Notes under the pieces: model-generated
What the model was told of the DNA's origin: nothing
The model's input: the letters and a program-made list of their open reading frames with translations, nothing else
Databases searched by the model: none
Program-made: the position numbers and the translations under genes
Part shown: positions 5,277 to 17,600 of the stretch, piece after piece
How positions within the stretch are numbered: the first letter of the stretch is position 1
How the letters are laid out: every line of letters begins with the position of its first letter
Source of the DNA: an uncultured archaeon
Lineage (GTDB): Archaea > Asgardarchaeota > Lokiarchaeia > Sigyniarchaeales > SOKP01
Direction: 5' to 3'
NCBI GenBank assembly: GCA_964525635.1
Contig: CAZGJX010000057.1
Location: 1 to 17,870 of the forward strand
Length of the DNA stretch: 17,870 bases

Positions 5277-7346
5277 ATGACAAGAGTTGTTATTATTGGT
5301 GGTGTAGCAGGAGGAGCTACTGCAGCTGCTCGATTAAGACGCTTAAAAGAAGATTTTGAAATCATTATTATTGAAAAAGGATTATATGTTTCATTTGCCA
5401 ACTGTGGCCTTCCATATTATATTGGAAACGTAATAAAAGAACAATCTCAATTGAAATTAATGACGCCAAATAGATTTTTAAGAAGGTACAATATATATGT
5501 TAGAGTCCAACATGAAGCCATCTCAATAGATAGAGATAATAAAAAAATTAAGATTAAAAGTCTATTAAATGATGAAGAATATTCTTTAGAATATGATTAC
5601 CTTATTCTCTCTCCTGGAGCCCGTCCAATTATTCCTAATTTCAAAGGTAATGAAGAAGTTCCTATATTTTCAGTTAGAACTATCCCGGATTCAATTAAAA
5701 TTAAACAATTTATTGAAAAGAATAAAGTAAACCATGCAACAATCATAGGAGGAGGATATATAGGATTAGAAATGGCTGAAAATCTACATAATCAGGGAAT
5801 AAAGGTTAAAATAGTTGAGATGTTAGAACAAGTATTAGCTCCAATAGATAGAGAAATGGCTCAGTTTATCCATCAAGAACTCATTTTAAATGGAATCTGT
5901 CTACAATTAGGAGATGCTGTTGATTCTTTTGAATGTATTGATAGATGTAACTATGTAATTCCAAAAAGTGGGAAAAAAATTAAAACTGATATGATATTTA
6001 TGGCAATTGGAGTGACGCCAGAAACATCTTTAGCTAAAAAAGCAGGGCTTAACTTAAGTCCAAATGGACATATTATAGTTAATGAAAAAATGCTATCATC
6101 AGATCCATCCATATGTGCTATTGGAGATGCAATTCAGATTAATAATTATATAACAAAACAACCCACATCAATACCTTTAGCGGGACCTGCTAATAAACAG
6201 GGAAGAATTGCAGCTGATAATATCGCTGGAAGGAATTCTACTTATAAGGGAAGCTTAGGATGCTCAGTTTTAAAGATTTTTGACTTAACTGTTTCTTTTG
6301 TTGGCCTAAGTGAAAAACAATTAAAAAAAACCGATATTAAGTATAATAAAATATATATACATCCAAACAATCATGCAGGATATTATCCAAGAGCCACTCC
6401 TATTACAGTTAAATTGATTTTTGAGGTTCCAAGTGGTAAAATTTTAGGGGTTCAAGCAATTGGAGGTCAAGGAACTGAAAAAAGAATTGATATAATTGCA
6501 ACGGTAATGAAATTTGGAGGAAATGTATTTGATTTAGAGGAATTGGAACTTTCTTATGCTCCACCTTTCAGTTCTGCAAAAGATCCAGTAAATATGGCAG
6601 GATTTGTTGCTTCAAATGTACTTCGAGGAGATCATCCAATATGGCATTGGAATGAATTAAATAACATTAAAAATAATAATAGCTTTCTTCTTGACGTAAG
6701 AACTCCTCGAGAGTATGCTGTAGGGACGATTGAAGGCGCAGTGAATATTAGTGATCTTGAAATAAGAGATAGATTGGATGAAATTCCAAAAAGTAAGGAT
6801 ATTTATGTTTTTTGTGAGGTGGGATATAGAGCATATATAGCTACTCGCTTATTACTTCAAAAAGGATATCAGGTAAAAAATTTATCTGGAGGATATAATC
6901 TTTATAAAATAGCGAAAATGACAATTGAAGAAATTGCAATGGAATGTGGAACTTCTCAGGATTTTATAAATGAGATGATGGAAGAAAAAACTTTAGAAAA
7001 TAATGGTTATATTACTATTGATGCTTCGGGTTTACCCTGTCCAGGGCCTTTAAATGTAATGATTAAAGGTTTAGAAGACCTACCAAAAAATAAAAAACTA
7101 ATAATATATGCTACTGATCCTGGATTTAAATCTAGTATTGAAGCCTATGTAAAATTAAATGAAGAAATAAAACTTCTTCATTTAGGAAAGGAGGAAGGTA
7201 GACTCATTGCTACTTTAGAAAAAGGGGAAATAACTATTGATGAAATTAAAAATCCTATTCAGATAAATAAGAAGACAAGAAAAGAACTAAAAGGTATAAA
7301 TGCCCCTCCTATTTCTGAGATAGATGTTGATGAACTTTATGATTGA
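5277..7346 (+). CDS. CoA-disulfide/persulfide reductase fused to rhodanese and TusA domains (continues in frame past a TGA into a second rhodanese)
   Basis: GGVAGG FAD motif, SFANCGLPY active site, GGGYIGLE, YAPPFS; rhodanese LLDVRT...FCEVGYRA; TusA DASGLPCPGP...ATDPGF. Confidence 0.92.
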   Translation: MTRVVIIGGVAGGATAAARLRRLKEDFEIIIIEKGLYVSFANCGLPYYIGNVIKEQSQLKLMTPNRFLRRYNIYVRVQHEAISIDRDNKKIKIKSLLNDEEYSLEYDYLILSPGARPIIPNFKGNEEVPIFSVRTIPDSIKIKQFIEKNKVNHATIIGGGYIGLEMAENLHNQGIKVKIVEMLEQVLAPIDREMAQFIHQELILNGICLQLGDAVDSFECIDRCNYVIPKSGKKIKTDMIFMAIGVTPETSLAKKAGLNLSPNGHIIVNEKMLSSDPSICAIGDAIQINNYITKQPTSIPLAGPANKQGRIAADNIAGRNSTYKGSLGCSVLKIFDLTVSFVGLSEKQLKKTDIKYNKIYIHPNNHAGYYPRATPITVKLIFEVPSGKILGVQAIGGQGTEKRIDIIATVMKFGGNVFDLEELELSYAPPFSSAKDPVNMAGFVASNVLRGDHPIWHWNELNNIKNNNSFLLDVRTPREYAVGTIEGAVNISDLEIRDRLDEIPKSKDIYVFCEVGYRAYIATRLLLQKGYQVKNLSGGYNLYKIAKMTIEEIAMECGTSQDFINEMMEEKTLENNGYITIDASGLPCPGPLNVMIKGLEDLPKNKKLIIYATDPGFKSSIEAYVKLNEEIKLLHLGKEEGRLIATLEKGEITIDEIKNPIQINKKTRKELKGINAPPISEIDVDELYD

Positions 7347-7640
7347 TTGAATAGTGATGATCCCCCTAAATTGTTAATTGATGTTCGCACAGCTCAAGAG
7401 TATTATAGTCCTACTGGACATATTCAAGAGAGTAAATTAATTCCATTAGGAGATTTAATGGATAATTTAAATCAGTTAAAGTCATATTTAGATGAAGAGG
7501 TCGTTGTAATCTGTCATAGTGGGGCTCGTTCAATGATGGCCGCTCAATTACTAGCACGAGCAGGATTTACTGATGTAAGAAATCTCTCAGGTGGCATGAT
7601 AAGTTGGCATAAAAAAAGCTATCCTGTAAAAATGAAGTAA
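7347..7640 (+). CDS. Rhodanese domain, probably the severed C-terminal domain of the upstream gene
   Basis: LLIDVRTAQEY, GHI, ICHSGARS and NLSGGMISW motifs. It directly follows TGA 7344-7346 in frame, and the domain's first strand and helix (ISEIDVDELYD) lie before the stop. Confidence 0.85.
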   Translation: MNSDDPPKLLIDVRTAQEYYSPTGHIQESKLIPLGDLMDNLNQLKSYLDEEVVVICHSGARSMMAAQLLARAGFTDVRNLSGGMISWHKKSYPVKMK

Positions 7641-7781: not shown

Positions 7782-8183
7782 TTGAAAATTATGGAAAGAA
7801 AAAATATATATAAGTGTAGTGTTTGTGGTAAAGTAATAGAGATCCTTAATCCAGGTGCTGAAAAGACCATATGTTGTGGGCAACCGATGAATCTAATGGA
7901 AGAACAATGGAAAGAGTGGAGTGGGGAAAAACATACACCTCATATTACGATTGATGGAAATAAAGTTGTTGTTGATATAGGCATTGAGATGGGAACTCCT
8001 CATCCTATGACAGAAGAACATTGGATTATGTGGATTGAGATTATATATAAAGACGGTTGTTACAAGAGAAAATTTTTAAATCCAGGAGATGAACCAAAAG
8101 CTTCATTTATTGTAGCTAACACAGAAGGAATTTGGGCTCGTGAATATTGCAATTTACATGGACTATGGAAGTCTGGAAAATAA
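7782..8183 (+). CDS. dfx: Desulfoferrodoxin (2Fe superoxide reductase)
   Basis: Desulforedoxin centre CSVC...CCG; SOR ligands EKH, HPMTEEH, CNLHGLW. The start may be ATG 7791. Confidence 0.95.
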   Translation: MKIMERKNIYKCSVCGKVIEILNPGAEKTICCGQPMNLMEEQWKEWSGEKHTPHITIDGNKVVVDIGIEMGTPHPMTEEHWIMWIEIIYKDGCYKRKFLNPGDEPKASFIVANTEGIWAREYCNLHGLWKSGK

Positions 8184-8371
8184 ATTTTATTTTTTTTCTT
8201 ATTATTTAGGTAATAAAATTAAATATTTTGCATATTTAATCTTTTTTTCAAAATTTTGTGTCCTTATACAAAATAATAATAAGTGTTAGAATAATATTAA
8301 AATGAAAGTTAATTTATTTATAATAATCTATCAATTTTTAATTTAAAATATAAAATTAGTGGTGTTTTATC

Positions 8372-8659
8372 ATGACATTAGGTTCAATACCAATAGATCT
8401 TTCCAAATTAAATAAAAAGAATTTAGAAAAGCAAATTTTAAGAATAGGAATGTTAGCTGAATTAGACGCTATCAATCTATATGAACAGCTAGCTGATATG
8501 ACTGAAAATAATAATTTAAAAAAATTATTCCTAGAAATCGCTAAAGAAGAGAAGACTCATTTAGGAGAATTTGAATATCTATTATTAAAACTCGATCAAC
8601 AACAAAAACATGAATTAGATGAAGGTGCCAAGGAAGTTAAAGAATTAATTAAAGATTAA
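8372..8659 (+). CDS. Small ferritin-like protein (encapsulated-ferritin/Flp-like)
   Basis: AELDAINLYEQ and EEKTHLGEF di-iron helices, 95 aa. Confidence 0.88.
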   Translation: MTLGSIPIDLSKLNKKNLEKQILRIGMLAELDAINLYEQLADMTENNNLKKLFLEIAKEEKTHLGEFEYLLLKLDQQQKHELDEGAKEVKELIKD

Positions 8660-10693: not shown

Positions 10694-11935
10694 TTAATAT
10701 TCTTCATCTTTAATTTTGGATGGTATATTTTTTACTTGAGAAGCTAGTTCTTTCCCTAATAATTCTCCTTTTTTAATTTCTTCAGATGTAGGATGACCTT
10801 TAAATGATAATGGATCTAAGATATCCCACTTCATTTTTTCTGATAATGTTTCAAAATCTTTCAGTGCACCTCCACTCCATCCATAAGATCCGAAGAATGC
10901 TACTTTTTTAAACCACATATGTTTCTTTTTTAATAACTCCATTATGTATTTCATAGGAGGAAACATACCATATTCATAAGTAGGTGCTCCAATTATTAAT
11001 CCTGCTGATTTATATGCATCAGAAAGAACAAAAGAGGCATCTATATTTGGAACACGATGTACATGAATAGGAACTTCTTCTTGAGCAATACCATTTAACA
11101 CGGCACTTAACATAGTCTCCGTATTTCCATACATACTTCCCCAAATCACACAAATTTCTGGTTCAGCATATTCTTTATTATAATTAGCATACCTAATGTA
11201 TTTTTTAATTACAGTTTCAGGTTTTCCTCGCCAGATTAAACCATGTGAAGGAGCGATCATATTAATTTCTAAACCAGCTAACGCTTCAATTGCTTTTAAA
11301 ACCATTGGAGAGAATGTAGCTACAATATTAGCATAATAGCGGAGCATTTCTTCTTCCCAATATGGCTTATTAGCATCTGGAGTCTCATCATCAAAAATGG
11401 ATCCCTTATGAACTCCAAAAGAACCAAAGGCATCACTTGAAAAGAGAATTTTTGAATTTTCTTCATATGTGACCATTGTTTCAGGCCAATGCACATTTGG
11501 TATTTCTGCAAATTTAAGTTTCTTTCCTTTACCAAGATCTAATTCATCTCCAGTTTTGACTGCTCTAACATTATTCTTTATCCCAAAAAATCCATCTACA
11601 AGATCAACACCTTTTTGTGTTGTTATTATTTCCGCATTTGGTGCAAGTAATTTTAACATATATGTAAATCCCGTATGATCAGGTTCAAGGTGATTTAAGA
11701 CGATATAATCAATATCATTAAAGCTTATCGAAAGTGTTTCAAGATTATTTATAAGAGTTTGAGCAGCACCACCCCATTCACGTACTAATTCTATGAGAGC
11801 AATTTTCTCTCCTTTAACGACATATGCGTTTAAGGCAACTCCCTTTGGAATTGGCCAAATACCCTCAAACAAATCCTCTGTGTGTATATTTGCACCAATC
11901 CAATATATATCTTCTGCTAATTCTACTAATGTTAT
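10694..11935 (-). CDS. fprA: Flavodiiron protein (FprA/A-type flavoprotein; O2/NO reductase)
   Basis: NHLEPDH, HWPET, SDAFG, PSHG di-iron motifs; flavodoxin WGSMYGNT and FGSYGWSG. The conserved N-terminus (TLVELAEDIYWIGAN) extends 21 codons above the track start, to ATA at 11935. Confidence 0.95.
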   Translation of the reverse strand: MTLVELAEDIYWIGANIHTEDLFEGIWPIPKGVALNAYVVKGEKIALIELVREWGGAAQTLINNLETLSISFNDIDYIVLNHLEPDHTGFTYMLKLLAPNAEIITTQKGVDLVDGFFGIKNNVRAVKTGDELDLGKGKKLKFAEIPNVHWPETMVTYEENSKILFSSDAFGSFGVHKGSIFDDETPDANKPYWEEEMLRYYANIVATFSPMVLKAIEALAGLEINMIAPSHGLIWRGKPETVIKKYIRYANYNKEYAEPEICVIWGSMYGNTETMLSAVLNGIAQEEVPIHVHRVPNIDASFVLSDAYKSAGLIIGAPTYEYGMFPPMKYIMELLKKKHMWFKKVAFFGSYGWSGGALKDFETLSEKMKWDILDPLSFKGHPTSEEIKKGELLGKELASQVKNIPSKIKDEEY

Positions 11936-15911: not shown

Positions 15912-16081
15912 TTATTCTTTCATTTTTTCGAACATGTCCTTGCTTATGTTGTAATGGGATATCCATTATTATCTACACCACATACAGGACAAAGCCAATC
16001 ATCTGGTAAATCTTCAAAAGGAGTATCTTCTTCTGCTTCATCATAAATATATCCACAAGCAGTACATTCCCATTTAGCCAT
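15912..16081 (-). CDS. Rubredoxin, split gene: exon 1 16081-15973, exon 2 15943-15912; joined product [46 protein letters not shown]
   Basis: CxxCGYxY...LPDDW.CPxCG motifs; GAGG upstream of ATG 16081. The canonical tail KDMFEK lies in another frame 29 nt downstream. Confidence 0.9.
15944..15972 (-). other. 29-nt intervening sequence with a bulge-helix-bulge motif (candidate archaeal mRNA intron)
   Basis: Insert AUAAUAAUGGAUAUCCCAUUACAACAUAA; central helix GUGU/ACAU, 3-nt bulges AGA and AAG, internal hairpin UAAUGG/CCAUUA. Confidence 0.7.
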
Positions 16082-16250
16082 ATATTTTTCCTCTTTTTTT
16101 AAATTATAAATTCTATATAACAGAGAAAATTCAAATTCTTTTAAATTATTTAAGATGATATTTAATAAAAACATTATAATAATATTAAAATCATTATAGT
16201 CCAATATTTATCTATAGAGATTTTATATATATTCTAAATAATATATGAGC

Positions 16251-17600
16251 CTAATTTAGATTTTTATTTTTAAATGTATTTTTAGGAGCACCACATTTAC
16301 ATTTCCAATCAACAGGCAAATCTTTAAAGAGTAATTCCAATTTTGCTTCATCATAAATATTTCCACAATTCTGACATATCCATTCATATAAATTAATCGC
16401 CTTTCTCAACTCATAATCACTAATGTTCTTTTCTATATTTTTACTAACATAGGGGACTGCTTTTTTATCTCCAAAAAGTATTGCCCCTTTTAATTTATTA
16501 TCTTTGATAATTATTTTTTTATAACAATTACTTTTTTCATCTATGTTTTTTAGAATTTCCCATCCTGCTCCGATTAAATCTTTATCTTCGGGATCAAAAA
16601 GACCAATTGAAGTAAGATCAACACCTATTATTTTTAATGTATTTTTTGGTATAGTTCCTTTATATTCTAAAGTATCTTTACCTAAAACTGCATGAGATAC
16701 TATTTTTGATTGTTCTATACAAGCAGGAATAATACCCCAAGTTTGATTTTGATATTCAATACAATCCCCTACAGCATATATATCTCTTCGACTTGTTTCT
16801 AAAAATTGGTTAACTTTTATTCCATGATTTGTATTGATGTTTGCTTCTTTTGCTAAATTAATAGTTGATCTTATTCCAGCTTGAATTAAAATAATATCTG
16901 CTTCTACTTCGCGTCCATCCTTTATCTTAATTCCTTTAACTCTTTTATCTACATATATCTCTTCTGTAACAGCATCTAATTCTACATTAATTCCCATATT
17001 TTCAATTATATCTTTCAGCATCCCCCCACAATCTATATCTAATTGTCGAGGTAACAATCTAGGAAAAAATTCTACGACTGTAGTATCTAAATTGCAATTT
17101 TTAATTTGTTTCGCTAATTCTAATCCTAATAATCCACCTCCTATAATAACTGCTTTTTTTACATTGTTAGTCTTTATATAATCATGAATCTTTAAAGCAT
17201 CATCAATATTTCTTAGTGTAAATACACCATTATTTAACATTTCAAGAGCATTTTTTATAGGAAGTAGATTAGGCATACTACCCGTCGCAAGAATGAGTTT
17301 ATCATAAGAAACGGATTCATTTTCTCCTTCTACAAAAATAGTTTTATCATCAGGAAGGATTTTTTTTACTTTTTTATTGAGTTGTACTTCTATATTATTA
17401 TTTTTATACCAATCTTCTTTAAATACAATTAAATCATCAATTATTACTTTTTCACTAATAAGTTCAGGAAGTTTTATACGTGAATAATAAGGATAACCTT
17501 CTTTTGAATAAATTATAATTTCTACATCATGATCTAACTTTCTAATATTTTGAGCTGTTATAGTACCAGCAATACCATTTCCTACTATAATTATTCTCAT
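16251..17600 (-). CDS. FAD-dependent NAD(P)H oxidoreductase (NADH:rubredoxin oxidoreductase/NirB-N-like) with a C-terminal rubredoxin-like domain
   Basis: GNGIAG, LATGS, GGGLLGLE and YAVGD motifs; C-terminal WICQNCGNIYDE...LPVDWKCKCGAPKNTF. Confidence 0.9.
   Translation of the reverse strand: MRIIIVGNGIAGTITAQNIRKLDHDVEIIIYSKEGYPYYSRIKLPELISEKVIIDDLIVFKEDWYKNNNIEVQLNKKVKKILPDDKTIFVEGENESVSYDKLILATGSMPNLLPIKNALEMLNNGVFTLRNIDDALKIHDYIKTNNVKKAVIIGGGLLGLELAKQIKNCNLDTTVVEFFPRLLPRQLDIDCGGMLKDIIENMGINVELDAVTEEIYVDKRVKGIKIKDGREVEADIILIQAGIRSTINLAKEANINTNHGIKVNQFLETSRRDIYAVGDCIEYQNQTWGIIPACIEQSKIVSHAVLGKDTLEYKGTIPKNTLKIIGVDLTSIGLFDPEDKDLIGAGWEILKNIDEKSNCYKKIIIKDNKLKGAILFGDKKAVPYVSKNIEKNISDYELRKAINLYEWICQNCGNIYDEAKLELLFKDLPVDWKCKCGAPKNTFKNKNLN

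Follow-up and report, generated by a model that had tools for sequence, protein, structure and literature searches.

A probable tRNA-type intron of 29 nucleotides in the coding sequence of an Asgard rubredoxin gene

Introduction

The locus described here raises the question of whether an archaeal rubredoxin gene, whose reading frame is broken by a 29-nt insert, is repaired at the RNA level. The gene lies on the minus strand of a 17,870-nt stretch of archaeal DNA, which we analyzed as a whole and call the window. An original prediction, made from the letters of the window, proposed that the insert at 15972-15944 is an intron of the bulge-helix-bulge (BHB) type, that its removal restores the rubredoxin tail, and that the host is probably an Asgard archaeon. 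Introns of this type are known from the pre-mRNA of the pseudouridine synthase gene cbf5 in Desulfurococcales and Sulfolobales (Yokobori 2009, PMC2738675; Watanabe 2002). A later study named cbf5 as the only prior mRNA example and added one case in a 5' untranslated region (Schwarz 2020, PMC7714728). The evidence presented below leads us to interpret the insert, with considerable confidence, as a BHB intron of the tRNA type in the rubredoxin pre-mRNA; the splicing endonuclease EndA would excise it, and the ligase RtcB would join the exons.

The interrupted rubredoxin gene

Exon 1 (15973..16081, minus strand) runs from the ATG through the first base of a split Gly codon, contains all four Cys ligands, and matches Pfam PF00301 with an E value of 4.6e-13. 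It is followed by the putative BHB-type intron (15944..15972, minus strand), a frame-shifting, phase 1 insert of 29 nt that terminates with an in-frame TAA and whose assignment is based on orthologue comparison, and by exon 2 (15912..15943, minus strand), which supplies the C-terminal tail and the stop. Read without splicing, the frame ends in the tail NNGYPITT-stop, whereas deletion of 15972-15944 gives a normal rubredoxin tail. The predicted coordinates were confirmed. The spliced protein would have 46 residues versus 45 for the unspliced one. The unspliced product retains the four Cys, as had been pointed out, and loses the conserved Lys-x-x-Phe strand, the Phe of which belongs to the rubredoxin core.

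A search of the 4.45-Mb genome allowing up to 6 mismatches found a single copy of the insert. The rubredoxin gene, the only free-standing one, is the sole PF00301 match found in that genome, which is rated 100% complete. The original prediction had named DNA reads lacking the insert as the sign of an assembly artefact. Such an artefact is not the explanation, because contigs of four sequencing runs cross the insert with zero differences, although one run is possibly the source of the assembly and all four possibly belong to one campaign.

Upstream lies an NAD(P)H:rubredoxin oxidoreductase-like gene (16251..17600, minus strand) with Pyr_redox_2, Rubredoxin_C, and weak Rubredoxin matches and a degenerate C-terminal rubredoxin domain. 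In this fused rubredoxin-like domain (16251-16390, minus strand), the second motif is shortened to C-x-C in the host genus, whereas other genera have C-P-x-C. A search for promoters and terminators gave no informative signal. The oxygen-defence set of the window comprises a desulfoferrodoxin, a ferritin/rubrerythrin-like protein, a flavodiiron-type protein, rubredoxin, and the rubredoxin reductase, and is scattered over 7782-8659 (plus strand), 10694-11872 (minus strand), and 15912-17600 (minus strand).

Orthologues with and without the insert

When 400 genomes of the phylum were searched by pattern, about 90 members of the family had the gene without interruption, and three genomes had the insert, namely the host, one genome of the same genus (G002), and one of another genus (G098). 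Eight further inserts came from searching metagenomes and proteins for the aberrant tail, for a total of 11 distinct ones. All 11 are 29 nt long and lie at the identical base position, with 13-26 of the 29 bases identical. The insert-bearing relatives are recorded as Promethearchaeota, to which the host also belongs, and the expectation of an Asgard archaeon was thereby borne out.

In the 11-sequence alignment, 90.5% of the cells of the BHB and its flanking helices were paired, and five pairs showed two-sided changes, 17 in total; these counts overstate independence, as the 11 sequences are related, and should not be read as probabilities. None of 500 shuffles paired as highly, and sliding the partners lowered pairing to 34-52% with 1-6 two-sided changes. 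RNAalifold recovered the BHB core from the alignment unguided. The paired fraction reached 97% in the exon helix and 87.5% in the intron helix, and the central helix had four standard pairs in seven sequences (including the copy in the window) and three in the other four. The compensatory changes include one central-helix pair, linking an exon base with an intron base, in which 4/11 sequences have C-G in place of U-A. Both outcomes that the original prediction had proposed to look for, presence or absence of the insert at one site and covariation in the BHB, were thus found. A covariance model of four inserts, run against 135 genomes, returned same-site copies only, plus three weak matches with E values of 0.03-0.04.

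The orthologues also bear on the borders. When 13 possible 29-nt deletions were compared, the one dictated by the EndA rule was alone in giving the orthologues' GVGK in 11/11 genes, so that structure and homology choose identical borders independently. The predicted cut, which yields VGK, is accordingly favored over the alternatives ending in VSK or VDK.

A second, unrelated BHB intron site was found 10 nt upstream, where the Val codon meets that of the fourth Cys. It carries inserts of 30-32 nt with unrelated inner hairpins (L120:700-730, L121:700-729, and L123-L126) and is occupied in 4 of the 42 genomes of genus g2 (G149, G152, G155, and G156).

The fold of the copy in the window

Each pairing that had been folded by hand was present at its coordinates. 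The exon strand of the 4-bp central helix (15975..15978, minus strand) pairs with the intron strand (15946..15949) through one G-U and three further pairs. The 5' bulge AGA (15972..15974) and the 3' bulge AAG (15943..15945) lie on opposite strands, and a cut is predicted after the second base of each, by the rule described for cbf5 (PMC2738675). The intron forms a hairpin (15950..15971) with a closing U-A pair (15971-15950), an internal loop, a 6-bp stem, and a 5-nt loop. On the exon side, a 6-bp helix is formed by its 5' arm (15986..15991) and bases 15940-15935, and the stretch 15935..15942 holds both the 3' arm and the partners of the two outer pairs (15980-15979 with 15942-15941). Five to six Watson-Crick pairs of this exon-exon helix are present in 11/11 intron-bearing genes versus 9/59 intronless genes, and its retention is consistent either with selection acting on synonymous sites or with transfer of the flanks along with the intron.

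The copy in the window has a complete central helix, both outer pairs, a perfect exon helix, and two 3-nt bulges on opposite strands. The flanking helices are short, as the original prediction had cautioned, and interrupted, and two outer pairs of the intron stem are mismatched. Folding the region alone gave a modest gain over shuffles (z -1.96), and the beyond-chance evidence for the BHB comes from the orthologues rather than from the folding of this copy alone. The competing pairing that had been noted as a caveat was also confirmed. The BHB of this copy lies 5.7 kcal/mol above the competing minimum-energy fold, the second weakest value of the 11 (range 0-8.1), whereas in 7/11 sequences the BHB lies within 0-2.1 kcal/mol of the minimum. 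Across the alignment the competing fold is 89.5% paired, with just five two-sided changes versus 17 for the BHB. This energy gap is the main weakness of the copy.

The gap and the mismatched pairs of the intron stem would fit a reading in which the inserts are introns and the host copy is decaying. The competing fold would then prevail, the transcript would be spliced poorly, and the cell would have mostly tail-less rubredoxin or little of it. Against this reading stand the full central helix with both outer pairs and the perfect exon helix, an intact exon 2, and the position of the gene as the sole PF00301 match of a complete genome. Additionally, nearest-neighbour energies penalize 3-nt bulges that EndA stabilizes. 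We regard decay of the host copy as improbable, although it is the strongest of the rival explanations.

Selection on the spliced frame

Pairwise counts over the 11 intron-bearing genes gave 135 synonymous and 10 non-synonymous differences for exon 2 in the spliced frame, a pN/pS of 0.01 to which RNA pairing contributes in part. The corresponding values were 0.2 for exon 1 and 0.63 for the insert read in the unspliced frame. Purifying selection thus acts on exon 2 when it is read in the spliced frame. The unspliced tails vary in sequence and length, with nine residues and a stop in some genes and read-through in others.

These data bear on the view that the insert stays in the message as the scar of a mobile element or a duplication and that the 45-residue, four-Cys protein with its new tail is the working product. 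The location of all four Cys in exon 1, a pN/pS below 1 in the insert, and, in two relatives, a 21-nt hairpin flanked by an exact direct repeat of 8 nt that resembles a target-site duplication can be cited in its favor. However, the unspliced tails differ in length and sequence among the genes, and exon 2 is conserved in the spliced frame even downstream of the stop. Moreover, compensatory changes maintain the BHB, the insert lacks a second copy in the genome, and at the second intron site the unspliced protein would lack the fourth Cys. An unspliced working product is therefore highly improbable. Ribosomal recoding, in which a -1 shift of frame or a hop over 29 nt would recover the tail from an unspliced message, is barely credible: a hairpin does lie 3' of the take-off codon, and four relatives have the same codon again 29 nt further on, but the landing codon is mismatched in the host genome and six others, the 11 inserts share no conserved slippery heptamer, a -1 shift would add about 8-10 residues inside the tight CG-x-x-K-x-x-F motif, and the covarying exon-intron pairs would be left unexplained.

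Several other identities of the insert were considered and rejected. A MITE or IS element does not fit a sequence with a single copy at up to 6 mismatches and a flanking repeat that matches at 2/8 positions in the host copy, and a CRISPR-repeat or dif-like origin was likewise rejected for a single-copy insert. A group I or group II intron requires a ribozyme core of several hundred bases versus 29 nt here, and an Rfam search with the insert gave no match. No tRNA-intron donor or look-alike was found in the host genome within 6 mismatches.

Splicing machinery and further inserts in the genome

Genes for RtcB and for two EndA paralogues are present in the genome. In an alignment to the Aeropyrum EndA, the alpha subunit has the Tyr, His, and Lys residues of the catalytic triad and the specificity-loop region in place, and the second paralogue is presumably the beta subunit. 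Asgard EndA has been described as an (alpha-beta)2 type with a specificity loop, able to cut relaxed motifs (PMC5829648). Together with the exact site, the compensatory changes, the unique cut, and selection on exon 2, these genes support the BHB-intron reading of the original prediction.

In the proposed mechanism, the transcript would fold into the 4-bp helix with its two 3-nt bulges, a fold that the intron hairpin and the exon-exon helix of 6 bp would hold in place. EndA, in its (alpha-beta)2 form, would cleave after the second base of each bulge, and RtcB would ligate the exons, giving an intact Gly codon and the 46-residue rubredoxin, while the 29-nt intron would be freed, probably as a circle. 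The rubredoxin mRNA is very probably spliced in this way: the insert, its exact site, the covarying fold, and the enzyme genes are documented here, and we infer cleavage and ligation from known archaeal splicing.

We scanned the genome for BHBs whose excision joins two coding stretches, with an energy filter, using cuts shifted by one base as the control. The scan, of a kind that the original prediction had proposed, resulted in six further BHB inserts of 29-31 nt in unrelated genes and in none of those lengths in the shifted controls. It also returned 21-nt and 24-nt matches. The signal appeared with the energy filter; by pairing rules alone, the scan gave no excess over the shifted controls. 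The resulting number of at least seven mini-introns in the genome is a lower bound, because the scan is blind to the rubredoxin intron, whose exon 2 is too short.

The longest of the six inserts, 31 nt, lies in a RadA-like gene (L099:1164-1194 on contig C44, plus strand), where the Pfam Rad51 profile is split at positions 196/198. The other five are of the 29-30-nt class and interrupt an eIF2-gamma-like GTPase with an N-terminal helix-hairpin-helix region (L100:1368-1396, minus strand), a ThiF/E1-like enzyme (L101:567-596, plus strand), a PBP/YbhB protein (L102:623-651, plus strand), a nucleoside/AMP phosphorylase (L103:1167-1196, minus strand), and an IorB/POR-gamma-like subunit (L104:458-487, plus strand). 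The split domains are contiguous, with the RadA profile matched at 7-196 and then 198-243 and the PBP profile at 2-83 and then 85-135. The exon 2 pieces of ThiF, POR, GTP_EFTU, and Glycos_transf_3 start inside their Pfam profiles.

The original prediction had further suggested that the intron might gate the electron carrier of the oxygen-defence chain. This suggestion found no support, since most relatives carry the gene without the intron and the same class of insert occurs in six unrelated genes. On balance, the intron looks more like a roughly neutral, tolerated passenger of the tRNA-splicing machinery than like a dedicated redox switch.

The tRNA genes of the host genome also appear interrupted. 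Dense, mostly intron-less tRNA arrays occur on contigs C54 (about 19100-26300, with 22 tRNA genes) and C146 (about 5800-7600), unlike the scattered, interrupted tRNA genes elsewhere in the genome, and these arrays may represent a mobile element or a virus. On contig C50, a tRNA-Sec was predicted.

Comparison with known archaeal introns

On the features that could be tested, the rubredoxin intron appears to belong with the crenarchaeal cbf5 mRNA intron and would work like it. Both are short, phase 1 inserts within a coding sequence with a border BHB cut between bulge positions 2 and 3, and both share often relaxed motifs, a host with heteromeric EndA, and patchy gain and loss (PMC2738675). The rubredoxin intron differs in its phylum (Promethearchaeota), its gene, and its position outside a catalytic codon. 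It is also one of several in its genome, with two sites 10 nt apart, whereas the cbf5 intron is confined to a single gene. Splicing of the latter is established at the cDNA level, whereas the rubredoxin intron is known here from DNA sequence.

Two other systems are related. In Asgard archaea, tRNA genes contain non-canonical BHB introns (bioRxiv 10.64898/2026.10.13.758758) that share the motif, the predicted enzyme, and repeated gains, and whose origin that preprint treats as the central open problem; it covers tRNA genes only and mentions neither mRNA, cbf5, nor rubredoxin. The BHB intron of Haloferax volcanii HVO_1309 (Schwarz 2020, PMC7714728) is likewise EndA-processed and in an mRNA, but it is 46 nt long, lies in the 5' untranslated region without affecting the frame, and was demonstrated by circRNA-seq and in vitro. 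Our literature search, mostly outside subscription journals, found no paper on Asgard mRNA introns and documented endonuclease-type splicing inside an archaeal coding sequence for cbf5 alone.

Origin, loss, and movement of the intron

Monophyly of the intron-bearing genes, evaluated on 98 exon columns, was rejected with 4 rows (AU p 0.003) and not rejected with 11 rows (p 0.076), and because these tests disagree we preferred a tree of the neighboring oxidoreductase. In this quick tree, the intronless G001 and G003 are nested inside G000 and G002 (SH-aLRT 98, 99, and 100), and at least four changes are required for six intron-bearing loci. The exon tree shows the same nesting of G001 and G003, the simplest reading of which would be one precise loss.

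The inserts split into two subtypes. The large genus contains both, and the G098 subtype also has one member outside that genus. Additionally, the intron-bearing L106, which comes from an assembly with two copies, is identical to an intronless gene at 96/98 exon bases. The subtype distribution on this quick tree and L106 hint at lateral movement. That assembly (GCA_016839635.1) contains two different intron-bearing rubredoxin genes, L106 and L114, in different neighborhoods, which are either paralogues or the product of a mixed bin.

In the two relatives with the direct repeat (L116:1602-1638 and L117:1611-1647), the last eight exon bases recur exactly at the end of the insert, and a self-complementary tetramer forms the BHB helix. 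Duplication around such a tetramer would build a two-fold BHB in one step, hinting that the intron may have been born by duplication. In the host copy the 8-nt repeat differs by six transitions (about 0.001 under a rough, post-hoc null). A flanking direct repeat was absent in 5/6 of the other inserts of the host genome, which confines this lead to the rubredoxin intron.

Drawing on the exact repeat in two relatives, the two subtypes off the host tree, and the nested intronless genomes, we tentatively consider a broader life cycle, for which the odds are somewhat unfavorable. In Lokiarchaeia-type Asgard archaea, the tRNA machinery might splice many mRNAs as a matter of routine. The enzyme-less mini-introns of these archaea might arise when a near-palindromic tetramer is duplicated around a hairpin, move laterally between lineages, and be lost precisely.

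Implications

If the introns are spliced as proposed, some entries in Asgard gene catalogues would be mis-called or truncated proteins; in one relative, the unspliced product is catalogued as a hypothetical protein. The tiny rubredoxin gene, with 11 natural variants ranging from near-perfect to weak BHBs, would offer a substrate series for tests of Asgard EndA, and the repeat signature is a testable lead on how such introns originate. A spliced rubredoxin and at least six more such genes would make mRNA splicing routine in the closest archaeal relatives of eukaryotes. This would bear on the origin of non-spliceosomal mRNA splicing, of which the Ire1/RtcB system is one type.
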